Assembly (NCBI GenBank): GCA_040954595.2
Contig: CM082587.2
Location: 3,046,275-3,110,274, forward strand
Reading direction: 5' to 3'
DNA length: 64,000 nucleotides
Source of the DNA: Balanoglossus misakiensis
Taxonomy: Eukaryota; Animalia; Hemichordata
The notes beneath the pieces were generated by a model. It did not search any database. It was not told the DNA's origin and saw only the letters and a list, made by a program, of their open reading frames with translations. The position numbers were made by a program, and so were the translations under genes. How positions within the stretch are numbered: the stretch's first letter is position 1; every line of letters starts with the position of its first letter. Below, one piece after another: positions 5,034-21,300 of the stretch.

Positions 5034-5932
5034 CATTCGAGGAGTCTTTGTAGACATAATGTACCTTGGAGCTCTCGACGGCTCTATTATGATGTATACT
5101 GCTCACGTTTGACTGATTCTGTAGTCACTTCACATGATTTACCCTTGGAGTTATTGCAGAACTGCGGTACTGCCATTGAGACTAAAACAGAGATGTCTCC
5201 CAACGGAAAACTGACATTGTATGGCTGAGTAATTAATTAATTTTAAATAATCATTAGGCTAATACATGTACCTATCGGTCCGGGCAAAACGGTTAATGAA
5301 GAACATATATTCGACACAGATCACTTGCTATTGAGTTCGGCGAGGGGCATTGTGGTCTTATTTATAATTATATGCCTCTTTACGGAATCGCATTATCAAG
5401 TCATCAACCAAACGAATTTTATTCGGTGTATAAATTTCCTCTCTCAGCGCGAAAAAACTGCTCGTTCACGCATGAATTCCTGCGCTCCGAGTCCTTAATT
5501 AACTCGCGGCGTCCTTTTGGCCGTGAATGACGTCACTTCCTCTTGAAATATTTAATGTATGAAAATTATATCTTCCGTTGAGTTTTCTGAGACTCGTTTG
5601 TCAGTAAGCCGATAAACAAGCAAAGCTGTGGCTTTGTCGTTTTAGATCTCAGCTAGGACGGTTAATTTTTGTTCCATGATCGTAATAACATTCCAGAACT
5701 GTTGACATCGCTTCGAGGTTTTTATTCTTGTAAATAATCGGTAAGCGGGTAATTAACTTTTCATACGGTTCTTTCAGGGTTACTGATTCATGTAGCTTTT
5801 CATATTAATGCTTTTTGTTTCTTTTTCCTTTAATTTCTTTCAGAAATCTGTTGTGCTTGCCTGAAGACACGTTTGCCAAGTGAGTCTACAGTTCTTTCAA
5901 TCTATATCGTCATGACATCTGAAGAATAGGAT

Positions 5933-7474
5933 ATGTGGGGCGGTACAACCACCGTTCGGGGGGACGTCGAAGCATTCTACCGCCGACAGTATGTGCGAAA
6001 CGAGCAACTGCAACACCGCAACAACAAGCGGTATGGCGACGCTCTGAAACGAGAACTGAGGCTCATCGATCGCGGCAAGTCAATCCGCGCGCGAGAACTG
6101 GCCCAGCAGGAGACCAGGTACCTCGACAAACTCATCCTCCTCTTCAAAAAGCAGTGCGAGATATCGCTCGACCGGGGCGAAAAGTCAGTTTCGGCCGGGC
6201 AGGGCCAGGATGGTACGTTCGAAAGGCTCCGTGTCGGACTCAGCGAGAAAGTGAAGCGAGAGGAAAAACGCCAGTCTATCAAGGAACTGCGGATGAATTC
6301 GAATCGGCCGCGAACTGCGCCCCCAAGTTCAAGCCGCATCTACAGTCCTGTGAACGGCACTCGGTCGACAGGCGTGACGCCCAGACCCAGCGTTGCCTGG
6401 GTCGATGACATTTTCCAAGATGATGGCGTTAGTTTGCCAAACACAGTCATATCACCGGAAGAAGTTATTTCCGATTTGCCTGAAATCGGCACCAAACGAG
6501 AAGAAAAGCTACAAAATGGTTGGGTCGTCGGGACTGACACTAAACTATCCCCGAGAACTGAACCTGCCCGCATGGTAGTTGTGAGGCCAGAGAAAATGGA
6601 CAAGAAAAATGAAAGGGAGAGACCTCGAACAGAAACTGAAATAAAATCATCAATTGTCGAGCAAAACTCTCAAGAAGTCAACAGAGATACTAAAAGTGAG
6701 CAACATGACAATAGTTCTGAGACTATCAACGTTCCCAGTGGTCCGCTTAACGGACTGACAAAAGACATGGTCACGGTTTACAACATCTCGAAGAACGGCG
6801 TGGCTTCTTCGGGCGTTCCATATGCGACGCCGACAAACGTGAAGATAAAACCGGTCTTTGAGAAAAAGACAGCTCTTCCAAAGGCAACTACTCACTTTGA
6901 GTACCAACCAGAAGAGAAGCGCCCTCTATCAGCCTCCCATGTCCACTTGAGCGGCTACAAACCAAACTTGCAGACGATCGTCGAGGGGCAACATACCAAG
7001 AAATCTCGACCCAAGACCGCCATTCCGTCGTTTCAGCGCAAGACTAACGACGGCAGTTCGCATTTGACCGCGGCCACAGAGCCTACGCACAAATCGAGGC
7101 CGGGCACACCAGGGAACGCTAGATCGGCGAACATCTACAGTAAATTCGAACGCCAGGATCGCAACTTCTCGCCCGCCTCCGCGTCGCCGTCGCCGTCCCC
7201 TTCCCACCTGTCCCAGTCATTAAACGGGTGCAAAGGTCACAAAGACACCGAAGAGCTGAGAGAAAGATGTGCCTCCTGTCCATGTCCAGACGTTTCCAAA
7301 GCGAAGAGATCGGCGAAGCGTCGACCGAAGACGGCAGTCAACTATGATCAAATACAGGAGAAAATGATGCGACGACTGCTGGATACTCACATGAAAAGTC
7401 AAAGACAGCATCTGATGTTATATGCCAGGGCGCAATCAGCTCCAACCAGACGAAACCTTGGATTTTCAACTTAA
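5933..7474 (+). CDS. Uncharacterised 513-aa protein, single coding exon; N-terminal predicted coiled coil, then a basic disordered region with repeated RPx[T/S]A motifs
   Basis: 1542-nt uninterrupted ORF, GC-richer than its flanks. A strong acceptor (ctttttcctttaatttctttcag) ends at 5843 just upstream, and a candidate 5'UTR donor (cc|gtaagt) lies at 4028. No family recognised. Confidence 0.75.
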   Translation: MWGGTTTVRGDVEAFYRRQYVRNEQLQHRNNKRYGDALKRELRLIDRGKSIRARELAQQETRYLDKLILLFKKQCEISLDRGEKSVSAGQGQDGTFERLRVGLSEKVKREEKRQSIKELRMNSNRPRTAPPSSSRIYSPVNGTRSTGVTPRPSVAWVDDIFQDDGVSLPNTVISPEEVISDLPEIGTKREEKLQNGWVVGTDTKLSPRTEPARMVVVRPEKMDKKNERERPRTETEIKSSIVEQNSQEVNRDTKSEQHDNSSETINVPSGPLNGLTKDMVTVYNISKNGVASSGVPYATPTNVKIKPVFEKKTALPKATTHFEYQPEEKRPLSASHVHLSGYKPNLQTIVEGQHTKKSRPKTAIPSFQRKTNDGSSHLTAATEPTHKSRPGTPGNARSANIYSKFERQDRNFSPASASPSPSPSHLSQSLNGCKGHKDTEELRERCASCPCPDVSKAKRSAKRRPKTAVNYDQIQEKMMRRLLDTHMKSQRQHLMLYARAQSAPTRRNLGFST

Positions 7475-7570
7475 AAGCCCCATGAACTGCCAATTTTAGC
7501 ATATTTTTAAACAATAAAATACCTCGGTCGTCTTCTCCTAAGCCTACGGTCGACGCCATTTTGAATTTGT
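7471..7570. repeat. Fragment of a short interspersed repeat (related to 7852-8089)
   Basis: TTAGCATATTTT..ATAAAATAC..TCTTCT..GACGCCATTTTGAATTTGT is shared with 7875-7953. Confidence 0.55.
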
Positions 7571-7851
7571 GACGATTCTAATGCGCATGTGCGCATGGCA
7601 AGATGCCTGTGTACAATATTTCACCCAACATTTGAAACAAAACATGTTTAAAATTGGACTGTACAGAATTTTTTTATTGTAATTAAAATGAATTTATTGA
7701 ATACAAAGCTGACGTTCCAAAGCATTCTTCGGTATATACATCAAGGCGCAATGCATGATGGAACAGGAAATGGAACCCACGCACCGTTCTTAGCTATTCA
7801 CGCACGACTATAGGATTTCCGGGGGAGGGGAGTCACGAATGAGGTATACTG

Positions 7852-8089
7852 TCAAAGTCCCAATAGCTGACACCTTTAGCATATTTTAATCGATAAAATA
7901 CTTAAATCTTCTACCAAATCCTTAGTCGACAAATGACGCCATTTTGAATTTGTTAAAATTCTACCACCCATGTGCACATACCACAGTAGTAATGGCTACT
8001 CTTGCAATGAAATATTTTAGATACCAATGAAATTTCAAGAACACCTGGCTGGCCACCTGATAGCGACACGTGTCGCTGGGAGACTTTCA
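7852..8089. mobile_element. Possible degenerate non-autonomous DNA transposon (MITE-like), ~240 bp
   Basis: Similar to 7471-7570; imperfect inverted ends TCAAAGTCCCAATAGC ... GCTGGGAGACTTTCA. Confidence 0.35.
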
Positions 8090-9845
8090 TGGTCGTGACC
8101 ATTGCCACGGATGTGATAAATAATGGTCGCACCTTCGAAGTGCCGTCCACTGCATGGCACCGTGGCAGTTTCTAGTGTAATGCCGGTGTGGGTGGATGCG
8201 TGTGGGCGGGGGGGGGGTGCTTCTCCAGTGGTTGGAACGACAGGGTACACTTGTCTTATATGGTCAAGCTGCCAAAATGAACGCCGACGTCCAGAAAGTC
8301 CTCAAAAATGAGCATGCTTCATTCTCATGTGTCGGCAAGCCTGGCGTGACATTGGCTTTCACTCGCCGGCTTCCTGCACATCACGCCAATGAATACGCCC
8401 AGACAACTGCTAGTTAATAGCCAAATACACTTTCTAAAGAGGACCTTGAGAAAGTATAAATCGACTTTTAACCTGTCCTAATGCAACCGGCTAAGTGCTG
8501 TGGAATTTGAAGCGCCATTGCTCGGGGGGCATTCTATGATTCTGGGCATTTTTGTCGTGCTTTGACAAAACAACCACCACACTGTTCAGGCCCAGATGAT
8601 ATGCGACCATTTGTGTGAGGTCAGTGGCGCGAGACGTTCTCTGTCCACTATGCACTCCGCCCACCCACCATCAAGACAACGTAGCCTGAAATTGAGGCTA
8701 AGGGACTGGTCAGTTTCTTCGGCTGGGGCGGGGAATTCTATTTTGCGGGTATCATAAAGTGACTGACACCCCCCCCCCCCCACCTTCTCGGGGCTGCATC
8801 CAGCGAAATTGAATATATTTGAGAAGTGGGCGTTAAAGTGTTTGGAAAGTTGCATTAATTTCCGAGAGTGGGAATATTTTCACGGCGGAGTAATTTTCCC
8901 ATTTGAATTTAGGAGCATACTATTTATATAACATTCTTACTCAGCGTACTGTGAAGCAGTATAAATACCTTTCACCTGTAAAGGTCTACGAATCACTGAT
9001 CTGTTTCAAAAACAAGTATTTTACATTCTACGGCGCATTCCACTTTTGTATATTACACACCAAGATATGACTGTCTTCAATACTATGTACAGTTTCCTTC
9101 AGTGGCCTGGTTCAGGCTTGAACGATTAATGTCATAGGCGAGTTGTCATGTCAGTATCCCATGACTCCCCGCCCGCGTCAACGACCTCATTGCCGTCACG
9201 TTCCATTTACTAAAATGACATCGTACTCGGGATTATGCCTGCAACAATCATCCCTCCGGATCAAAAATATGTCAATATCACGAGCGGGTCCAGACAAGCT
9301 TGCGAAACAATACTATTCTATTTTTAAAGCTATTATTATTATTATTACTATTCTATTCAAAAAAAATAAATAGGCCCCTAATCGTTTTGTTCTTCTCAGA
9401 TGCATCCTGTAATACCGAGAGACACTATTTAAACTATAGGCGTCCAAGGAATTTAACACATCAAAAATAACATTCTTTCGAATCAATACCGGTATTGTTT
9501 AGAAAAATGCCAGTCATCGGAAGCATGTGACGAGTACATGTAGTTCGACAAACATAGTCATGGTCGCTCCACACACCGTGCATGACAGTGATGCAAACAC
9601 GCCAAGAAAAGGCCGCTTTTGATATCTGAATGTTAATTTGAGAGAGAGAGAGAAAAAACTGCTTTGAGGTCGTTCGCTGGCCTTGAAGCCGAGCACGTGA
9701 ACCCAAGCTTGTAATCAATCTTCTTCGAGAGAAATGAATTTTTTTGCATAGACTGTACCACTGAATTTTGGACATGTACTTTCATTGTCTGACACCTGAT
9801 GCAAATACATGTGTGCGCCGACGAATACGACGATTCGACCAGGCG

Positions 9846-10012
9846 GTCACGTGACAAGAGCTAGCCAATGAGATTGCAAGGCCAGGCATTCACAGAAGGC
9901 CCTATAAGAAAACTGCGATCGTGAAACGCCCAACATCAGTAGCCAGCCAGTTATCCATCAACCACAGTCCCAACCCGGGTTTTCCTCTTGTCTGACAGAT
10001 AAAAAACCAAAG
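9846..10012 (+). promoter_or_regulatory. Putative promoter and non-coding first exon of micro-exon gene A
   Basis: In order: GTCACGTGAC E-box (9846-9855), CCAAT (~9865), TATAAG (9903), Inr-like TCAGT (9936), then a strong donor AAG|GTAAGT at 10013 that could splice to the acceptor at 11262. Confidence 0.5.
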
Positions 10013-11270
10013 GTAAGTAAGAAAAAATATTTTTTTTTTTATCCCGAAACATTCGTGGGGAATCGCCAACGGAGTGGATCACTGTCTTCGTTCCTTTCGG
10101 GCAGAGATAAAAAAATCTCTTTGTGTTTCGGGGATAACTGCAAGTCATTTTGGAAACCATTTGCAAAATGTATTACTATTATACACAAGGTTTCACAAAA
10201 TTTCCTCGGATGAAATGTGTGTTTTATAGAAAGTTCACATATTCAAATGATCGGATTTCTCTAAACCGTAGATTTCTCGAAACCGCAGAGAAACTACAAA
10301 ACTCCAGGGATTGGCAAATACGACTAAAATAAGCTATGTGATGAGCAAAGCCGCGTCCCTGATGTGTCCACCCCCCGCGCGCTTTCCTGGCTAAAAAGTA
10401 AAAGCAGATCCCCACACCACTGGACGGGAGATGCAGCCTCCGCGAAAATGGGCAAACTTTCAAACGAATGATCAGATCCGCGAACGCTCATTGTAGCTAT
10501 AAGCAGACTGGCCTTTGTGCATCGTCAGTCAAGCGCACGTTTTACCGGAAAGAGCAGCGCCATAAAATAGAAAGGCAGTATCTGCATATCTGAAGGGCAG
10601 GTGCGTGTGCGGAATAAACAGTTATTCACAAAAGCGGCGAGTAGACATCCGTCCGGTTTTGTACAGCTGTCAACATGGCGCGAGTGGCCGGTCACATTTC
10701 AAGGTGTTTCCCGTGCGTACCTTTCAACGCAAAATTTGGCTTCGTTCGATCAGTGTTGTTTGAAAGAACTTTCCTACGAAAGACTATGGCAATGAGCATA
10801 AAAGCTTTGTTCGGTTTCAGAAATCTTTGCTGGGTTTTTCAATGACTCCCCCCCCCCCCCGAAATTTTGTCAGAAACGAACCTTGACCCGTGGGTCACTT
10901 CCCGATGCAATGCTAATATGCCACTTTGGTATGTTCAACATTACATACAACATTCACCCATTTGTAACACACAGAATTCAACTTATTTGTTCTGGGGTGA
11001 GTTAGTGCACAAATTCAACAATATGGTTGGTTGGTTGACTGTTCAAAATGGTAACCGAGCCAAAAATGCCAGGATGTAAAGGACACGTGATGCAAAAAAC
11101 ACGTGTTTGTCATTTGCCAGGGGTACGCACACTATAGTGTCTCACCTGGGTTCACGTGCCGAGTGCAAATAGTAGATATTGCGCTTCCTGTTCGTTGCAT
11201 GATTAAAGCCATGTGATTCCTATCGACTGATGATAATGTATTTTATGTATTTTATTTTCCAGACGTCAAT

Positions 11271-12694
11271 ATGATGAAACAAGTGCTCCTGATCGCAATC
11301 ATTGCTTTCTGCATTGCCTGTGCATCTGGTATGAAAGTACATGTATTTGTAGTTGTTGTTGTTACCGGCTTGTTTCAAAAGATTCGAAATCAGTTAATAT
11401 AAACTTCTTTCAATCGCAATTATGGTCCGTTCTAAGAGTCAATTATACTGGACTTATCCATATATATTTATCTCAGCGTTTCCTCCAATTAAATTTACTT
11501 CCCCTATTCCTCAAAGTTCTTCCTTCATATGTCTTTATTATAGAACACCAATTACTAACTATTTTATTTTACTTTCCCCCTATTTAGCCCAATCAACAGC
11601 AGGTAAGATTTTCTTAATGATACTATTATATTATCTTTAATATGTTACATTAGTATGAAGCCAAATTTCAACATATTATTGATGATTTGTGTTATTTTAC
11701 CATATTTCTTGCGCTAAATTTACGACTTTTGCTCAGAGTCGGCCGAATCAAATGAAGCTGTGTAGTAATGGTGATGGTATACTCTACATGCGAGTGAATG
11801 TGTCGTTTCTTTTGTCCTTTCTTAGCCACAACAGCTGCAGCCACAGACGCACGTAAGTTTTGCCTTTGATCACTGGTACACTTTAGGAACTTCTTTAAAA
11901 ATACCGACTGGGTTTGCTATTTTGATTGCACTCTTTTGATGCCAGACGACAGCTTTGTTCTAATGACTAAAAAAGACAGACCGCCATGATGCGTTAGAGC
12001 GCAACTCTCGCTGGGCTTTGCATATCAATACTTCAGTGGTCACGTGACAATTATGTAGGGATTTTCTGTTTTACAAATTGAACCAAGAAAATCAAACGAG
12101 TTTCTTCCTCAGCCGCCTCCTTTATACATGTCGGCAAATTTATTTTTGCCCATGCATACAAATTGAATAAAATTCAAAAATTTCAGTGTCAAATTATTAC
12201 AATACCATTGTTTTCATTTGGGTAGAGGGTTCTATTGTTTTCTTTGTGAATAATAATCTATCGCTTTTATTTATGTTGGTCGCAGCAACGAGCGAACCTG
12301 AAGGTAAGACTTCGCCGCTTCTCAATGTTCTTGTTTTGATTTTTCGGGAACATTTTGTGGTCGAGGAATAATTATTCTGTCTGGCAACTTTAATGACTAT
12401 TAATCTGGACACTAATACTAACGTACTTTCCCTATTCATTTTCTTTCCAGCCACCACCGCAAGTAAGTAATTTGATTTTGTGGTTAAACGTTTAAGTTCG
12501 ATTTCCTAATTATCCTAATAAGAATTGTTAGTTCGCAGTTTAGAGATTGTATTCTGTTGTGTATATACAAAACCAGGCGTTTACTAACGTGGTAATTTTA
12601 TTGTCTTGTCGTAGACGGCGCTGTTGGCCTCCAATCAGTCGGTGCCCTGTTGATGACTGCCACCCTGTTGGTCGTCAGCCGTTGGATTCAGTAG
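11271..12694 (+). CDS. Micro-exon gene A: 69-aa precursor of a small Thr/Ala-rich, predicted GPI-anchored glycopeptide (CD24/CD52-like architecture)
   Basis: Coding exons 11271-11328, 11588-11602 (15 nt), 11826-11852 (27), 12286-12303 (18), 12451-12462 (12), 12615-12694; all introns GT-AG and phase 1. Translation: MMKQVLLIAIIAFCIACAS-AQSTA-ATTAAATDA-PTSEPE-ATTA-NGAVGLQSVGALLMTATLLVVSRWIQ*. The paralog at 15247-16909 supports the model. Confidence 0.85.
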
Positions 12695-13233
12695 GAGCCC
12701 GGACCCTCAAGTCAGAAGTAAGACTTGGATAGCTTTGTCTCTGTGTTCTTATTACAAAGAGGATTTTTGGTCGATCTGTTGTTTGAAGGCCCTGCTTGCT
12801 CGCATTGTGAACACTCCAACTATAACTGAATCACAACTGACAGTTTTAGGAAATGTTGTTTTCGATTCCACGACCGTTGCACCAACTGATAACGTATTTC
12901 TATGCATTTTTTTCGTTTCAGGCCACGTTTTTACCACCGAGTGAACCAACAACGGACATGTTAAAATCTAACTGGCTACCTGAGTGATTTTGTTTTTGTT
13001 CACATTAATTTTGTTTCGATTTACAACCTTTTGTAAGTTTTATATTGATGGTAAACATAACATATAGATAGACGCATATAGATAGAACTACTATATCTAT
13101 CTATGCAAATATAGACTCCTTCACTCGTGCAATTTGTATTCAAGTGTATCAGGATTTGTCTATAGTTAACAGTTTGAAGATTGCGCTCACTTTCGCCAAA
13201 TTCAAGTTGTCAGCCTGAAGTGATGTGTTCAAA

Positions 13234-13309
13234 ATGACGGTGCTATGGATGACGAACAACGGAAGTGACATCATTCAGATGGAACTTCCGTTTTTGATGA
13301 CTCCGTACT
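13234..13309 (+). promoter_or_regulatory. Conserved 3'UTR block with stem-loop (gene A copy)
   Basis: AACGGAAGT-ga-CATC-attca-GATG-ga-ACTTCCGTT (13258-13292); aligns with 17422-17496. Confidence 0.65.
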
Positions 13310-13442
13310 CGAATGAACGCGACGCATCAGTTTTAAAGATTGACGCGCTGTCCTTGTTGAATGTTGACAAAGTGAAATTACTGGTGCATGGGTATTTCAA
13401 CCATGGTGGTGCTGTAATAACTTGAGTTATGAGGGAGTTGGC

Positions 13443-13448
13443 AATAAA
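13443..13448 (+). terminator. Candidate poly(A) signal of gene A
   Basis: AATAAA ~150 nt downstream of the conserved hairpin, followed by GT/T-rich sequence. Confidence 0.5.
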
Positions 13449-15246
13449 CATTTAAATGTTAACAATAACATAATTGTGGAGTGCGTTATTTCTTGACACC
13501 CCTTTGGGCATGCCTACAGACTTACCATTGGGGAAGTGAAGAGTCCCACTTGAGAAGAGGGTTCCCTTGTTTGCTTTGCCTGTGCTCCGATCAGCGATAT
13601 AGGTCATCTCCCAGATTCACGATCTAGCCAGCAACCATTCTCACCTACAATAAAATAAAAAAGGGAGAAGTGGGTCAACCTTTTATTGTCCATCACAAGG
13701 CCTTGCTGTGGCCGGTGTTATACCTGACTAATGGAGGATTACAACCTCGTCCAAACATCGTCTCAACTGCCGATATAAATCGACGGAAAGGGGAAGGAAC
13801 ACCATGCCACTCCTCTCACTTCACTTCCCTAAAACAAAGCTTGTGGCTTATATAGTAACCTAAATATACTAAACAAATGCACACAACTAATACAATCTGA
13901 AACCCCGGTAACCACCGCACGATGAAATTGCCAGCCAATCAGGGGCGACTAGACTCTGGAGACAGTTTGAATTATTGATATGACCGTGCGGGGACATTTA
14001 TTTGAGAAAAAAACGTCGTTTGGAGACAGCCAGTCCGCCAAAACCTGCGAGAAGTGAAACAGAGCATCTGTGCAGCTTTCTGTGAAACTGACTTTAGGTA
14101 GGTATATTTTTTTTTGTCATGAGAACATTTTATGAAGCATCAAACGAAAATGAATCGGACCGAGAGACATTTGACGTCATTATCAAGTGATGGTTCACGA
14201 AATATAGTACAAATGTAGTTTTTTTGGATAGCGTTTGAAACAGAGAGAATCAATTGTTTTTAAGAGATCTTCCATGTGCAAATTGAAATCGCTTTTGAGT
14301 ACAATTTAAGATTTGATAAAACTTTGAGTAATTTCAGATATTTCTGTTCACGTCACCAATATTCAGTTACACCACAAGTGTGGATGATATTCCAAAAAGG
14401 TGTACAAACGTTGATTTTTGTAGATTATCTTTCTCTTCTCCGATTGCATAGTCGTGCGGAATGGATAGGATTGTTCCCATGGTATCGTGACGATATTTTG
14501 CAAGCGTATCAGTCATTCCGGCGTCCATGGGTAGAAATCGTTCTCGCGTGTCTAGACTTCGTTCGCCAAGCGGTCGCCTTGGTTACTTCATTTCCTGTTC
14601 ACTCGGTGGCCACTCGTTATGCTTAAAGCCACTTTATAATATGTGCGTGTTTTTTTTCTGCCAATAATTCTAATAATTGGAGAGAGTGCACCATCTATCA
14701 TTTGGCAGTCTGTCGTCATCAACGATGTCGGTTGGCTGATTTCTCCTTCACGAAGTTACAGCAACAGAAACCGTAGATGGGGGTCATGGTTACAGCAGAA
14801 CCCAGCGAAAGCCGCCATAAGGCCCACGAGTCACCAGATTCCATGAATAATGTCGAACACATTAAAGTCTGTAGCGGCGCCAAATCAAAAATATACTAGA
14901 AACGACACATCCGGGGATATCGGCGGGAGGGCAGATGTTTCCGCCGTCAACGGGTCCAATTATGACGTTTCAGTACAGAAATTTAATGCATATCGAACGT
15001 CGACCATACATGTACTTCTAATGTAGTTTTTACACGTGGTTGAACACACAGTATAGGATGGCACGTTCTCATACTTGTAATGTACGGATTACTTAATTAT
15101 GAAATAGGCCTCTTTCACTGACAGCATTGTTCATTTTTATGCCGTATAAGTTATTCATGATATCCTGGCTTCAAATGGCGACATAGTCAATAGTGTATGT
15201 TGCTTATCATATAAACACGTTATTTTATTATTTTACAGACATCAAG

Positions 15247-16909
15247 ATGATGAAACAGCTTCTCATGATCGCAGTCATTGCTGCGTTCGCTTCCTGTGCA
15301 TACGGTACGAGTCTCGCATTCTATGAACGAATTTACAAATGTAATTTGCAACTGAATCATCGCAGTATTTTCTCGAGCTCCAGTCTTCTACGTCATTAAC
15401 GGTTGACGTTTAGTGTCTGTGGTTATGATCAAAATGTGCGAGGAGTCTTTTTTTGAAATCATCATCATCTAATCAAAAGAATATTAAAACAGATGGTGAT
15501 CAAGTTCCTTGAAATTATATATGTGTCTATTTTAATATTTTTTTTATTTTTTTCTTTAATATAGCTACGTCGACGGCAGGTAATTGTCGATTTTATTATC
15601 AAACAAACTCCTGGAGTTTGGAAAATTGTCTATTCGATCAATGAGAATTTTTTGACAAAAGCGATGAGTCCCTAATTACTTTCTGTGACAGCGACGAAAG
15701 ACGCACTGTCGAATACTGACTGAGTCTTGTATTATTTCATTTCTATGTAGCAACAACGACGGCGGCTGGCGGAACAGGTAAGGACCAGTTTTGTTAACAA
15801 AATTGTCAATATGGAAGGTTCAGTCCATGGATGCACACTAATTCGCAGATGAAATGCATTTCACAACGCATTGGTGATTTACTCAAGGTCAGAGTGTGAT
15901 ATGAAAAGGATGGTTTAATGTCTATTATTTGAATAACATATTGCTGTTTCATTGGATGTTCTAACAGAGACTACCACGGGTGCTCAACAGCAACCAACAG
16001 GTAAGAACTTCAAAACACAAGAACTTTGTCGTTGGTAGAAAACACAGGATCGAGTCCGCTCGGGGGAAGAAAAGCCGAATTTTAATGATAAACTTCGCTG
16101 TGTCGTCTCTGCAGCGGGCAATTTCGTTAATTTTGCAATTTGGAATTAGAGTTTACATCTGTTGTCGCACGGCTGACAAACTTCACGTTATCATCTCTCT
16201 TTCAGGGACTCAAAGTGAGTGTTGTTTGGAAAACTGGCGGAGAGTGCCATCGCACACAGAGTGAACACTTCATCCTATCAGAGTTTATCGCAGGAAGTAA
16301 AAAATTATCGTGATACATGTAAAACGATTAGTTCTCGGTTGGTTGGTCGATTTGTAACGGCACAGCTACGTGCGTGCCATTAATAACCGTTTCTACATTA
16401 CTATTCCCTTGTATGTAAAGAGTGCATGCCATCAGTACAAACCTAAGGGTATCGGCCGCCATTTAAATACTATTTAACACCTGGTTTTATTTTCAGATAC
16501 ACCCCAGACTACAGATGCAGGTGAGATTATGGGGTTATTTATCCGACATTTTCTAACGCGAATATGAATAAACTCTTTTGGTGAAATGAGAATGGATCTT
16601 TTAATTAATTCGAGAACATTAGAGTGAATACTGTTTATAAGTTTTAGCAAAACTCTGCCAATCGTAGCCAAACATGCATGAATTACGAGAGGGTTCTAAT
16701 ACAGTCGTTTTCCATTCCCCTTTCAGAAACCACAACTTCAGGGAGTAAGTATTTATACGATTTTTTAGCGTCGGATTTTTTAATTTGATTGTTTAAAACG
16801 TCAGGTTTGTAAACGGGTATTCCACTGTTTTACCGTAGGTGGTGCAACTTTAGTCGGTACTCTGTTGTTGACCGTCTCTCTGGTCGTCTACCATGGCCTG
16901 GTTCGTTAG
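15247..16909 (+). CDS. Micro-exon gene B: 84-aa precursor of a small Thr-rich, predicted GPI-anchored glycopeptide; paralog of gene A
   Basis: Coding exons 15247-15304, 15565-15579 (15 nt), 15751-15777 (27), 15968-16000 (33), 16206-16214 (9), 16497-16520 (24), 16727-16744 (18), 16839-16909; all GT-AG and phase 1. Translation: MMKQLLMIAVIAAFASCAY-ATSTA-ATTTAAGGT-ETTTGAQQQPT-GTQ-NTPQTTDA-ETTTSG-SGATLVGTLLLTVSLVVYHGLVR*. The 9-nt exon is the least certain. Confidence 0.85.
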
Positions 16910-17421
16910 CCGAATTGATAAAACCGACAGGTGAGATATAATTTTCGTCTACAGTGACCGACGTTGTTTCCTTGTTGTTTTGAGTGTTTCTTCCGCAATA
17001 TTGATAAGTTTGTTTCCGTGGCAACACATTTAGGCCGATCAATAATATTAATGGATAATTTCTGGTATTAACAGAAAAGGAGTTTCTAAATGATGGCAGA
17101 TTTAAAAGGAGCAGTTCCCAATCCATTAAACGTCGAACGTTTTCCTCGGTTACAGGTCTGATTTCCAAATGACGACCGGAGTTATCTAGAAATTCCTGAA
17201 AAGTTTGCTGTGCCGGACACTAGGCCCAGGCCTACCTATTATGTCCACTCTGCATGGGTGATGTATTCAGAGGAATAAGATAACAGCAGTCTACACAATA
17301 GACACTGCCAGTCTACCACTGAATATAGATGTCGAATTTATGGCAGAATTACTGATGCAACGTTAGCATTGTGTTCAACTCCTGACGGCAGTAAAGGGCT
17401 CAGTATGGAAGTGTTGTACAT

Positions 17422-17496
17422 ATGATGGTGCTATGAACGATGAACAACGGAAGTGATGTCACTGATGACACGCTTCCGGTTTAATGACGTCGCACT
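17422..17496 (+). promoter_or_regulatory. Conserved 3'UTR block with stem-loop (gene B copy)
   Basis: CGGAAGTG-a-TGTCA-ctga-TGACA-CGCTTCCG (17448-17478); aligns with 13234-13309. Confidence 0.65.
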
Positions 17497-17667
17497 TGAT
17501 TTGACAACAAACATGGCACTTCCATTTAACATGTTGAATTTTGTCTCGAATGAACCAGTATCTTCACATTTGAGATTGCAACGTTGTTTTATTTTTTTTT
17601 CAAAAAATGCCATACATATTGTGTTCGCATCTGTAATTGACCTTGACGTATACCATGTTTGCATTTA

Positions 17668-17685
17668 AATAAACACCGCAATAAA
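17668..17685 (+). terminator. Candidate poly(A) signals of gene B
   Basis: Two AATAAA hexamers (17668, 17680) ~190 nt downstream of the conserved hairpin. Confidence 0.5.
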
Positions 17686-18339
17686 GATGGACGTCATTAT
17701 TTTGGTGTAAAAATTGTGGTATTAATTATGTGATTGTTATGCGAAGAAGACGAAAGGGGAGAACACCGGCTCAAACCGGTTTGAACAGGTTTGCAATTTT
17801 CATTGCTTCGAGGAACGCTCATGTACCAGAACTTGGTCTTGGAATGTGGCGAGGTTGATAAAAATAGTAAAAAGTTAAATGTTCAGACCCTTGAGAAAGC
17901 GCTTACGTACTTTTTTAACATGTGGTCCGATTTGTTCTTACCCCATAAGCTTAATATAATGTCAAAAGTCACAACGAAGCTCTCTCGTCCGGTCGGGCTC
18001 GGTCGCATGTTTGCTTGTTAGGCCTAAGCGAAATATTTTGTTCTGACTCAGAACATGCGAGGTTTCTCCCCACCACCATGGACTTATAGTGCTGCACTCA
18101 ACGATGGTATCATTCTCTTTTCTCTCATCTAAGAAGATACCTCACATTCAAAAGCATGGTCGTCATGGTAATTTCAGATGCGTACGCACAAGCAGGAACC
18201 ACATACACACGTCGCGACCAAAGGCTTCTTTCTTCGTAGCATCCTTGTCATATCTGGTCAGTTTGTAGGACGCTGTAAGCAAGCGACCACCGACATTTTC
18301 ACTGTTATCAGCCAGCCATCCACGGGCGGCGCCGTGAGA

Positions 18340-21300
18340 ATGTCCACCTTTCTACGAATCCCGCGCCAGTTTCTGCCGGAGATTCAGCGCGACTCTCGTC
18401 GCGGAAAGTCTAAGTCGCTGATGAAAACCACAACGGCAACCACGAGCTATCGAGATGTGCAGGCGAACGGTCGGCGCCGCGTCGACAACTCGCGGTCCTC
18501 CTTCGGCTCGCTGTCGCAGGTCGACGAGAAGGTGCGCAACTTGCTGCTGCACCCGAACGACATCGGGCAGTGCAAGGCCAACCCGCTCACCCACCGAGGG
18601 AAGCGCATACAACTGGTGAAGATGCTGCTCTTGACCCTGTTGCCCGTCCTCTCCCTCGCCTTGCTTGCGGTCATCGACCTGCACGGCATCGCTTACGGCA
18701 ACAGCGTCGACATCCAAGTCCGGAACGTCATCCGGTTCAGCCGGGACATCGGGGTCCTTCTGAGTCGACTGCAGCGCGAGCGAGACATGACGGCCCTGTA
18801 CATCAGCGTCATCGGACCCGAAAACAAGGCCTACCTGACGGAGACCTATCCGCTCACGGACAGCGCCCTGGAGGAGTTACAAGAATGGCCGGTCAAAACG
18901 CACATTTTGCGAGCATTGCCGTTTTTCCGAAAGAAAGAAGATTTCCGCAACCACTTAGCCAGCCACCGTGCCGACATCGACAAGTCCAACGCCACCGTGT
19001 ACGACGAAATCAACTTCTACACCGATGCTATCCAGATTTTCATCGATTGGCTTTACGAAAGCGTCGGCAATTCCAAAGGTACGGGTCTGTGGCAGACTCT
19101 GGTCGCCTACCAGTTTCTTATCGTGAGTAACGTCGACACGGGCATCGAGCGTACTCTGGGCTCAGTCTTCTTTTCTCGTGGCGGCTTCGACCGATACGAT
19201 GACTACATCTGGTACCTGGAAAAATACAACGTCGGTCGTACCAACTTCGCAGCCTCCAAACAATACTCGCCGCTGATCGAAAGACTTTACATGGAACAGG
19301 TAAAAAATCTGCAACTCGACGAAAATTTCACCCATACCATCGAAGAGCTGCGTCGGCAGATCATTTTCAACAACGGCGTCGGGCGGGTCGCCGACTTCGA
19401 CGACGCCGCCCGCTGGTTTGACGGCATGACCGTGTACATCGACATCCTCGCGGATGTGCAGAAGAATCTGGCTGACGAAATCCTCATCAAGCTGGAGAAC
19501 GAGCTGGAAAACGACACCGAAGCTATCGCGGTCAGCATCTTCCTGGTCATCGTGGTCATCATAATGTGTCCTCTGACCCTGCAAGCTATCTGGACACTGA
19601 CCACGGACATCCAGAACTACGCTCTGACGCTCGCCACCCAAACCAAGGCCCTGAACCGGGAGAAGAAGCGCTCGAATTGGTTGCTGTACTCGATGCTGCC
19701 GAAAACAGTCGCCGAGCAGTTGATGCGCCACGAGGAGGTGAAAGCCGAGTATTATCACCAAGCGACCGTCTTCTTCTCCGACATCGTGGGATTTGATCGG
19801 CTGTGCGTGGAGAGCACCCCCATGCAAGTCGTGGAAATGCTGAATGGTCTGTACGTGTTGTTCGACTCGAGGATTGAGCTGTATGACGTGTACAAAGTGG
19901 AGACTATTAACGAGACCTATATGCTGGCATCAGGTTCGTTTAAGCATTGTTGTTTGTTTGTTTATTTGTTTGTTTGTCCTGTGGGACCCACACCCGCAGC
20001 CGCAGACATGACGACACCCACCCTTTAACTATTCACAAAAGTAAAACTCTTCTTCTCTTCACTTTCAGGACTGCCCGAGAGGAACGGGATTATGCACGTT
20101 GGCGAGATGGCCACGGTAGCTTTGGATTTGTTGCACAACATCAGTTACTACGAAATTCCTCACAAGCCGTATACCAAGATCAAAATCCGCATTGGAATGC
20201 ACATAGGTAGGTCGCAAATACCCACCAACAGAAATGGTATCTCTCTCGTCAATATTAAAAGGGAATATCGTTTTTTATGAGACAGGATCGCCGTTTAACA
20301 TTCTCGACAAATGGCAGAAACCATGTTTCTGTTGTTATAGTTACTGGAATGCACTGAATTTTCAGCTAGGCTAATTAGACGTGACAGGATACAGGATACC
20401 AATGACTATTTTTGGTACCCACCGGATGGATCATTCTACAAATTATGACAATACACAACATATCAGCAGAAATCTGATGACCGATGATTCTATACAGTCA
20501 TCTGACGAGGGAGACAACATAACTATATTCTGGGGGGAAAAAGTTCAAACGATGGCGAGATTGTCATGTTTTGATTGTCCACCGAATTACCGTTTCGCCA
20601 ATTAAAACCCTCTCCACACGCAAAGCGTGATTAGCGTCGTTGCTATGGAAATTGGTGGACTTCTGCAAAGGAAGCCGTGGCCATGCGCAGAAGAGGTCGT
20701 GATAAATCGGATCGGCCCCCGGGCATCACCATGGAAACAGTCACAGCTTAAATTTATTTGCTAGTCTCGAATCTGGCCAGTTCTTTTTTTTCAGGTACAT
20801 TTTCATATTGGGGATAAAGACTTATGTCGAACCTGTCAGATATTGAAGACTTGTTTGTGTGATTGCAAGATGTGATCATTTATATTTTCTGAAAAACAAA
20901 CACATCAACCCACGTCGTTTCAAGGTCTCTGTTACTATGGTAGCCGTATGGTTTCTTGTTTGTTCCTCGCTCGTTAGCCGCAAAAAAAACCTGAATGTGG
21001 CAGCCTGTATTCTGGTTATTTTCTCAGGGCCAGTCGTCGGTGGCGTCGTGGGACTGAAGATGCCCCGTTATTGCCTGTTCGGTGACACCGTCAACACAGC
21101 ATCCCGGTTACAGACCAACAGTTTGCGTGAGTTTTTCACATTTCTGGTTTGAGAAACTTGAAAATGTATGAAAAAGTATTATTTCACAATTTTAAGTACG
21201 CCCTTTAATGTCTTACAGCTAGCCGTGCTCACATCAGTCATAACTGTTACATGGGACTGCTGGACATAGGTGGGTACACCATGGTAAAACGAGGTGAAAT

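Follow-up and report, generated by a model that had tools for sequence, protein, structure and literature searches.

Two neighbouring genes of the acorn worm Balanoglossus misakiensis, here called A and B, are old tandem paralogues and very likely real orphan genes, in which a chain of micro-exons stands between a signal-peptide exon and a hydrophobic tail exon. As judged from the sequence, their products are likely tiny sugar-coated peptides, lipid-tethered at the cell surface, and it is very likely that the two genes combine a layout like that of micro-exon genes (MEGs) with a CD52-like product. Both lie on the + strand of the window, by which we mean the whole stretch of 64,000 nucleotides that was analysed. 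MEG-type genes are known from parasitic flatworms, where they are often taken as an adaptation to the host interface. A clean MEG-like case in a likely free-living acorn worm suggests a general, under-annotated route to tiny glycan scaffolds, as well as the presence of CD52-like minimal GPI glycopeptides among the invertebrates of the deuterostome lineage, in which sialylation expanded. Symmetric micro-exons of this kind could serve splicing diversity or evolutionary modularity only.

Gene models and support for the micro-exons

Gene A has a putative promoter at 9865..9940, proposed from the sequence and the positions of its motifs (CCAAT at 9865, a TATA-like word at 9903 and an initiator-like TCAGT at 9936), and a predicted non-coding first exon at 9930..10012 (start approximate), whose donor AAG/GTAAGT scores 8.7 and opens an intron of 1250 nt. 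With an acceptor at 9998, it would instead be a UTR exon of 14 nt. The signal-peptide exon (11263..11328) has 66 nt, made up of 8 nt of UTR before the ATG, 19 codons and 1 nt. It is followed by four micro-exons of phase 1-1 with 15 nt (11588..11602), 27 nt (A3, 11826..11852), 18 nt (12286..12303) and 12 nt (12451..12462), the final base of the last one opening the codon of the predicted omega residue, Asn44. Inside exon A3, an AG occurs at each of three in-frame offsets (9, 15 and 21). The GPI-signal exon (12615..12717) encodes the 25 residues after Asn44 and the stop TAG at 12692-12694, and the predicted last (3'UTR) exon (12922..13470, end approximate) has an acceptor with a branch-point word and a 70-nt AG-free zone, and AATAAA at 13443.

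For gene B, a putative promoter and non-coding first exon at 13935..14097 (CCAAT at 13935, exon about 14000-14097, donor TAG/GTAGGT, then a 1141-nt intron) are suggested by the parallel layout and are the least certain part of both models. The signal-peptide exon (15239..15304) again has 66 nt, comprising 8 nt of UTR, 19 codons and 1 nt. The six micro-exons are B2 (15565..15579, 15 nt), B3 (15751..15777, 27 nt), B4 (15968..16000, 33 nt), two of 9 nt (16206..16214) and 24 nt (16497..16520), and B7 (16727..16744, 18 nt), which contains the omega candidate Ser60 and opens the codon of a second candidate, Ser62. Exon B4, with a donor of 7.3 and a 57-nt AG-free zone, is the least secure exon owing to its weak acceptor (score 0.9) and its absence from the blind scan described below. 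The GPI-signal exon (16839..16930) contains the stop TAG at 16907-16909, and the predicted last (3'UTR) exon (17157..17700, end approximate) carries AATAAA at 17668 and 17680.

With these exact coordinates, each of the 12 coding introns has GT..YAG ends and is of phase 1, and all ten micro-exon lengths are divisible by three, confirming what an earlier, sequence-only reading had claimed, and the spliced frames give the two proteins of 69 aa (A) and 84 aa (B) that it had proposed. A terminal G is found at 8/12 coding donors. That reading had also taken the tail exons to be terminal. They are instead probably penultimate, because strong donors sit 23 nt (A) and 21 nt (B) past the stops; both genes thus probably have a 3'UTR intron beginning 21-23 nt past the stop, in addition to the predicted 5'UTR exons.

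Both strands of the window were scanned blind for AG-(3-51 nt)-GT intervals with a simple splice-site score that uses approximate matrices and a donor cut-off of 2.5, reduced from 3.5 once the exon coordinates had been checked, which lets B7 in. Among the 28 candidates obtained, the nine within the two coding spans were all exons of the sequence-only reading and all 3n in length, compared to 6/17 of those outside 9900-17700 (Fisher p=0.002); the two remaining rows, which belong to a single 5'UTR candidate at 9999 with alternative donors, fall in neither group. Nine of the ten micro-exons were thereby recovered, B4 being the one missed, whereas 200 local shuffles averaged 1.1 candidates and never exceeded 5. 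Ser and Thr account for 28/56 codons in the proposed frame versus 2/66 and 9/56 in the other two frames. The exon chain exceeds chance, and its observation is confirmed.

The signal-peptide exons of A and B are 78% identical over 83 nt. All five matched intron pairs are unalignable. Of 120 intron pairs compared, one reached z>3 (3.1), and the top micro-exon pair agrees at 73% over 15 nt. The first two micro-exons had been described as alike in both size and sequence; the sizes (15 and 27 nt) do correspond, but the sequences are only 60% and under 60% identical, respectively, which is lower than the 73% between B2 and B3 within gene B and indicates that the likeness is largely compositional. 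That A and B have the same layout, UTR introns included, despite unalignable introns argues for long-term selection, and their different numbers of micro-exons (four and six) indicate that symmetric exons have been gained or lost in the genome. Neither the genes nor the hairpin discussed below recur elsewhere in the 64-kb window, in which the pair has CLCA and NIT-guanylate-cyclase/UBR4 genes as neighbours and the product of a neighbouring gene matches Ptychodera flava at 93%.

Homologue searches with signal-exon queries were of low sensitivity because only 19 residues per query are real exon. Word-based searches with the aligned exon-1 read-through frames gave no candidates among proteins of 23-88 aa, and 201 candidates, none with E<=10, among proteins of 89-2000 aa. 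Exon-1 queries matched no protein in collections that include those of Ptychodera flava, Pfam returned no family for either exon-1 frame, an atlas search with one query had no usable match, and three translations from the window had no exact match. A profile search of 1.84 billion representatives had a single match, a repetitive 1141-aa protein, which was rejected as the match lies on the mostly intron-derived positions 16-47. No relative among the flatworm MEG families was matched by the signal-exon queries, each with its 19 real exon residues, and convergence is a likelier source of the resemblance than common descent. A literature search, conducted largely outside subscription journals, turned up no publication describing either a micro-exon gene from a hemichordate or an MEG with a GPI anchor.

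Predicted products

Rule-based tests support the proposal of a signal peptide, a Thr-rich core of ~24 or 40-42 aa and a GPI-type tail. In each gene, the long 5' exon encodes a predicted signal peptide that fits hydropathy and the -3/-1 rule and would be cleaved near residue 18-20, leaving predicted cores of about 24 (A) and 40-42 aa (B), with Ser/Thr at 9/24 and 20/42 positions, respectively. The N-X-S/T sequon is absent from both products. The GPI rule asks for an N-terminal signal, small residues at the omega and omega+2 positions, a further 20-30 residues beyond omega and a hydrophobic C-terminus (PMC7125958). Gene A agrees with this rule at Asn44-Gly-Ala with 25 residues after, and gene B at either Ser60-Gly-Ser with 24 after or Ser62-Gly-Ala with 22 after. 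The post-omega spacers, with mean hydropathies of +1.25 (A) and +1.4 to +1.7 (B), are less polar than the ~10 hydrophilic residues described in the same source (PMC7125958). In both genes the last micro-exon ends in a non-consensus A, which makes the predicted omega residue an Asn or a Ser. The tail exon would be a GPI signal exchanged for the anchor at Asn44 in A or Ser60-62 in B, and since the anchor replaces the tail at omega, the mature peptide is predicted to be encoded wholly by micro-exons.

Known systems and competing explanations

An operational definition of MEGs asks for seven exons or more, of which at least half must be 3n in length and shorter than 70 nt, and for a run of at least four such exons (PMC7653826). 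Gene B passes on exon number, with 8 coding exons (10 with UTR exons), whereas gene A has 6 coding exons and reaches 8 only if its UTR exons are real; both pass on small 3n exons (5/8 with a run of 5 in A, 7/10 with a run of 7 in B), predicted UTR exons counted. In schistosome MEGs, symmetric exons with lengths of 6-36 nt are described as making up ~80% of the coding sequence (PMC5825161, PMC4671649), a proportion of which both genes fall short, as micro-exons form 72/210 nt (34%) of the coding sequence in A and 126/255 nt (49%) in B, although they cover the entire predicted mature peptide. The signal peptide in a long 5' exon and the secreted or membrane-anchored product given in the same descriptions (PMC5825161, PMC4671649) are predicted for A and B by rule-based assessment. 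Like the MEGs of Schistosoma, Echinococcus and Hymenolepis, A and B have long flanking exons, a 5' signal peptide and central symmetric exons of <36 nt (PMC4671649, PMC5825161, PMC7653826). Their products also resemble those of flatworm MEGs in being small, disordered and Thr/Ser-rich, the genes of both kinds are overlooked by gene finders, and some MEGs are membrane-anchored and predicted to be O-glycosylated. Unlike flatworm MEGs, they belong to a likely free-living deuterostome, have a predicted GPI anchor rather than a helix, and gave no sequence homology. MEG variation was reportedly defined by DeMarco in 2010.

CD24 and CD52 are two-exon genes with the core in one exon, whereas the cores of A and B are split across 4 and 6 micro-exons. 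CD99/XG, the glycophorins and endomucin are O-glycosylated vertebrate stalk proteins with small phase-1 exons, and SCPP genes have small phase-0 exons. In all of these, as in A and B, a signal exon is followed by short symmetric exons for a disordered extracellular part, but their products are larger and transmembrane or secreted; since they share the layout, architecture alone implies no diversity system. The products of A and B resemble CD52 and CD24 in consisting of a signal peptide, a very short Ser/Thr core and a GPI signal, and in being mostly glycan scaffold (PMC7125958, PMC11982460, PMC5381688). CD52 has 12 residues with an essential N-glycan at N3 (PMC11982460), unlike A and B, which have no sequon and for which no homology to CD24 or CD52 was found. 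In the Schistosoma polymorphic mucins (SmPoMuc), 27-nt exon modules likewise encode Thr/Ser-rich units, and differences in exon number go with differences in length and glycosylation (PMC2576457). However, SmPoMuc exons are near-identical, in ~1-kb repeat units of a recombining multigene family (PMC2576457), whereas the modules of A and B differ in size and sequence and have non-homologous introns; tandem near-identical 27-nt exons were not found, the best pair being the one that agrees at 73%.

A quite improbable alternative to anchoring is that the tail is retained. The products would then be either mucins that cross the membrane once and end in 4-5 cytosolic residues, like the membrane-anchored MEG-14/29/32, or peptides that are secreted into mucus and aggregate through their tails. 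The 19-residue hydropathy of the tails, 1.87-1.93, would suit this, as 1.9 clears the classical transmembrane threshold too, as would the single Arg right after each hydrophobic run and the O-glycosylated membrane-anchored MEGs that have been described (PMC4671649). However, the tails are rich in Thr, Ser and Gly and fare worse than real helices (summed 19-residue membrane-helix scores of +1.96 and +1.77, versus +0.25 and -2.74 for the two helices of a neighbouring cyclase, on an approximate scale on which the tails are poorer), the cytosolic part would be nearly nil, and a small-small-small motif lies at the right distance and at an exon junction in both paralogues. Both tails therefore appear closer to the GPI-signal rules than to a transmembrane helix, and GPI attachment is predicted. 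It is very improbable that one or both genes are unexpressed relics, or that the models over-fit chance splice signals. The lack of a match in the collections that include Ptychodera flava proteins and the weakness of B4 are compatible with such a reading, against which stand the nine 3n exons found blind, far above the shuffle mean, and the retention by both copies of frames, splice sites, UTR introns, poly(A) signals and the hairpin while introns became unalignable. In addition, gene finders are known to overlook micro-exon genes (PMC7653826).

MEG-type diversification, in which regulated or stochastic micro-exon skipping would create a length and glycan repertoire for microbe, self or gamete recognition, is in our view unlikely. 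The count of 16 and 64 in-frame combinations in the sequence-only reading was correct, all 16 exon subsets of A and all 64 of B keeping the common C-terminus, but as a sign of skipping it fails, since it is the arithmetic outcome of symmetric exons and the same symmetry is equally demanded by exon gain and loss. Diversification is also favoured by the tail junction, at which 11/12 possible upstream exons give a permitted residue for omega (Asp, Asn, Gly or Ser), by the room for real alternative splicing that the internal AGs of A3 and the weak B4 acceptor provide, by the agreement of gene B with the operational MEG definition (PMC7653826), and by the protein variants reported for schistosome MEG-2 and MEG-3 (PMC5825161). 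Against it, the window has two copies only, variants of low-complexity Thr/Ala modules would vary mostly in length, and the introns are short (94-433 nt), with mostly strong splice sites and branch-point words near -30 at 6/10 micro-exons. Moreover, the UGC that lies between branch point and AG in 74-79% of SRRM3/4-type neural microexons, without being strictly required (10.1101/2024.09.17.613571), occurs within 30 nt of the acceptor (as TGC) at 1/10 micro-exons. The hypothesis of a variable recognition system or combinatorial repertoire is unsupported so far. We are similarly doubtful that a free-living deuterostome has convergently evolved a micro-exon system for diversity, in which skippable modules of 3-11 residues would make up the entire mature chain of sialylated GPI brushes co-regulated by a previously undescribed 3'UTR hairpin.

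The explanation we favour, and consider reasonably probable, is that A and B are old ptychoderid tandem paralogues whose symmetric phase-1 micro-exons encode O-glycosylated, GPI-anchored, Thr/Ala-rich brushes of the surface coat, the exons being mainly evolutionary length units. Mucin-type, possibly sialylated O-glycans on Ser/Thr would form a hydrated coat that may be anti-adhesive or lectin-binding. The biology of the group points to ciliated or secretory epithelia as the possible site and to this role, as sialylation and mucin genes expanded in hemichordates (PMC4729200) and the hemichordate epidermis is highly secretory (PMC13554239). The main mRNA would be the full-length chain, with occasional in-frame skipping tolerated.

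Hairpin in the predicted 3'UTRs

A hairpin of ~80-100 nt is conserved in both predicted 3'UTRs, although the introns no longer align. Rfam had two chance-level matches only (E 0.58 and 3.2) across 7000-18500. A SECIS reading was unsupported, as there is no UGA (both ORFs end in TAG and have no TGA inside) and, by eye, no apical AA; C/D snoRNA and pre-miRNA readings were unsupported by eye, with seeds that differ. A 20-nt pattern from the hairpin core had five metagenome matches, which were set aside as their upstream 33 nt agree at only 6-12/33 positions and the best model E values are 0.3 and 0.37. The common hairpin would co-regulate both mRNAs, and its conservation between the paralogues provides a second handle on these genes. 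Its copies, at 13225..13325 in A (conserved core 13234-13312) and 17413..17512 in B (conserved core 17422-17499), are homologous with z=11 and a blastn E of 1.6e-6, and have fold z values of -3.85 and -5.51, respectively, on the + strand and -1.73 and -2.99 on the - strand.

Exon chains and predicted products

On re-check, the exon borders proposed by the sequence-only reading for the tandem micro-exon paralogues A (coding span 11263–12694, + strand) and B (15239–16909, + strand) were exact. Each gene has a 66-nt signal exon, followed by micro-exons of 15, 27, 18 and 12 nt in gene A and 15, 27, 33, 9, 24 and 18 nt in gene B. All 12 coding introns are GT-YAG and phase 1, as had been claimed, and TAG closes both open frames, which encode 69 aa (A) and 84 aa (B). 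A blind splice-site scan of both window strands, with simple weights and one threshold loosened after the proposed exons had been checked, returned 28 candidates of 3–51 nt. All nine candidates within the coding spans were proposed exons with lengths divisible by three, versus 6 of 17 outside (Fisher p=0.002; two scan rows at 9999 counted in neither group). In 200 local shuffles the mean was 1.1 candidates and the maximum 5. The 33-nt exon B4 (15968–16000) escaped the scan due to its weak acceptor. Ser and Thr codons were 28 of 56 in the proposed frame versus 2/66 and 9/56 out of frame. Genes A and B are very likely real orphan genes that look unannotated.

The claimed signal peptide fits residues 1 to about 18–20 by hydropathy and the -3/-1 rule, and the predicted cores, residues 21–44 (A) and 21–62 (B), agree with the proposed mature lengths of ~24 and ~42 aa. 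These cores contain 9/24 and 20/42 Ser/Thr and three charged residues each, with unglycosylated masses of about 2.3 and 4.0 kDa; a search of both products found no N-glycan sequon. The suggestion of a GPI-type tail was borne out in part. Under the GPI-signal rules for omega, the predicted attachment residue, and the residues after it, as given in PMC7125958, omega would fall on Asn44 (gene A) and on either Ser60 or Ser62 (gene B), leaving an allowed 22–25 residues behind it, but the post-omega spacer is not as polar as these rules ask. In favor of the claim, both tails would make poorer membrane helices than the pair in the neighboring cyclase (on a hydrophobicity scale without position weights). 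Asn44 and Ser62 are each encoded across an exon junction. Although G is the final exon base at 8 of 12 coding donors, the last micro-exon closes with A in both genes, a hint of selection on the omega-junction residue. In this predicted division, one exon would supply the signal, one the anchor signal, and the micro-exons the whole mature chain.

Known systems and the role of the micro-exons

Pfam, exact look-up, word searches of a protein collection, Atlas and a profile search identified no relative of either gene; because the only real exon sequence in each query was 19 residues of the signal exon, this means that no annotated 23–88-aa protein shares three 5-mers with them, rather than that the family is unique. 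Small symmetric phase-1 exons also occur in vertebrate O-glycosylated proteins. Gene finders are known to overlook the micro-exon genes (MEGs) of flatworms (PMC7653826). The likeness to MEGs holds for layout (PMC4671649, PMC5825161, PMC7653826, PMC3512318), and gene B passes an operational MEG test, as does gene A if its predicted UTR exons are real; however, micro-exons form 34% (A) and 49% (B) of the CDS, below the ~80% of the MEG description. Similarly, the proposed CD24/CD52 design stands for how the predicted product would work (PMC7125958, PMC11982460, PMC5381688), but not for membership, as A and B lack the sequon and spread their core over several exons. Nor do they belong to SmPoMuc (PMC2576457). 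Genes A and B appear to combine a CD52-like product with a MEG-like layout.

A surface-coat role is plausible, since sialylation and mucin genes are expanded in hemichordates (PMC4729200), whose epidermis is rich in mucus (PMC13554239). We lean towards the products being tiny GPI-anchored O-glycan scaffolds of that coat, with exons acting mainly as units of evolutionary length change. We consider it unlikely that they instead form a convergent micro-exon diversity system, in which skippable modules would yield a spliced repertoire of hairpin-coregulated surface brushes. As the sequence-only reading had counted, all 16 (A) and 64 (B) exon subsets keep frame. When joined to the tail exon, 11 of 12 upstream exons give a residue permitted at omega. 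The same symmetry is equally needed for exon gain and loss, which the four versus six modules display; among 120 intron pairs, one had z>3. Three in-frame AGs inside A3, the 27-nt micro-exon of gene A (11826–11852), and the weak B4 acceptor speak for skipping, but the splice sites are mostly strong and the introns 94–433 nt. We consider a sizeable regulated repertoire of skip isoforms improbable. UGC was found at 1 of 10 micro-exons versus 74–79% of SRRM3/4-dependent microexons (10.1101/2024.09.17.613571), which speaks against a neural microexon programme, not against other skipping.

Untranslated regions and the 3'UTR hairpin

A non-coding first exon is predicted for both genes, in each case preceded by a CCAAT word and followed by a 1.1–1.25 kb intron. 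A strong donor lies 23 nt (A) or 21 nt (B) past the stop, opening predicted 3'UTR introns of 204 or 226 nt before a last exon with AATAAA. An intron so near the stop escapes nonsense-mediated decay, as these would. Matched introns (5/5 pairs), promoters and 5'UTR exons of A and B gave no alignment above shuffles (z -0.7 to 1.2). In the first and last coding exons (11271–11327/15247–15303, 12617–12691/16841–16906), 14 of 18 identical codons share synonymous sites versus 6.8 expected under saturation (P about 5e-4). Beside unalignable introns, this likeness may reflect either exon-limited gene conversion or nucleotide-level constraint such as splicing enhancers.

A 100-nt 3'UTR stretch (A, 13225–13325; B, 17413–17512) aligns between the genes (z=11; 0/100 shuffles as good) and folds into a long hairpin, with sense z of -3.85 and -5.51 versus -1.73 and -2.99 antisense. 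It supplies the three most stable of 170 100-nt windows across 9.5–18 kb. Single-sequence folds have 11 pairs in common, out of 36 and 39, and pair-keeping changes comprise one double-sided and one single-sided, weak evidence from two sequences. Rfam matched the hairpin to no family. A DNA-level element remains a rival to an RNA hairpin because the invariant core resembles an ETS+CRE motif, an inverted ETS-site pair with a CRE-like word, and five metagenome contigs carry the core without its flanks. On two, L004 (5979–6020) and L001 (5978–6021), the 20-nt core precedes a short inverted ETS-like word; these partial hairpin-model matches (E about 0.3) are probably a common promoter-type palindrome. 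By eye, tandem G-A pairs can be placed near the hairpin base in both copies, as in a kink-turn or SECIS core, although genes A and B hold no UGA codon.

Genomic neighborhood

The window typed as animal DNA. About 8 kb from genes A and B lies a CLCA-family gene (344–1985, - strand; CLCA and VWA exons by Pfam, reaching ~2 kb), a family tied to mucus-producing epithelia. Downstream, a NIT-domain receptor guanylate cyclase (18172–21152, + strand; Pfam NIT, HNOBA and Guanylate_cyc; two membrane helices) has an exon that matches two Ptychodera flava proteins at 93% and 88% identity; next come echinoderm proteins at 60–69% and Saccoglossus ones at 65%, so that a ptychoderid acorn worm is the likely host. 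NIT guanylate cyclases are expanded in ambulacrarians, and this one is a candidate nitrate/nitrite or NO-related sensor. UBR4 and then a BING4CT/WDR46-type gene are also within the window. An orphan single-exon ORF of 513 aa (5933–7474, + strand) with a coiled-coil-like start had no Pfam family and no exact match in the protein collection; the splice-site scan gave a possible 36-nt 5'UTR exon at 5844–5879. Just 3' of this ORF is a 61-nt direct repeat (7536–7596 and 7919–7979; 75% identical, 383 nt apart) containing the word GCCATTTT, which is presumably YY1-like.
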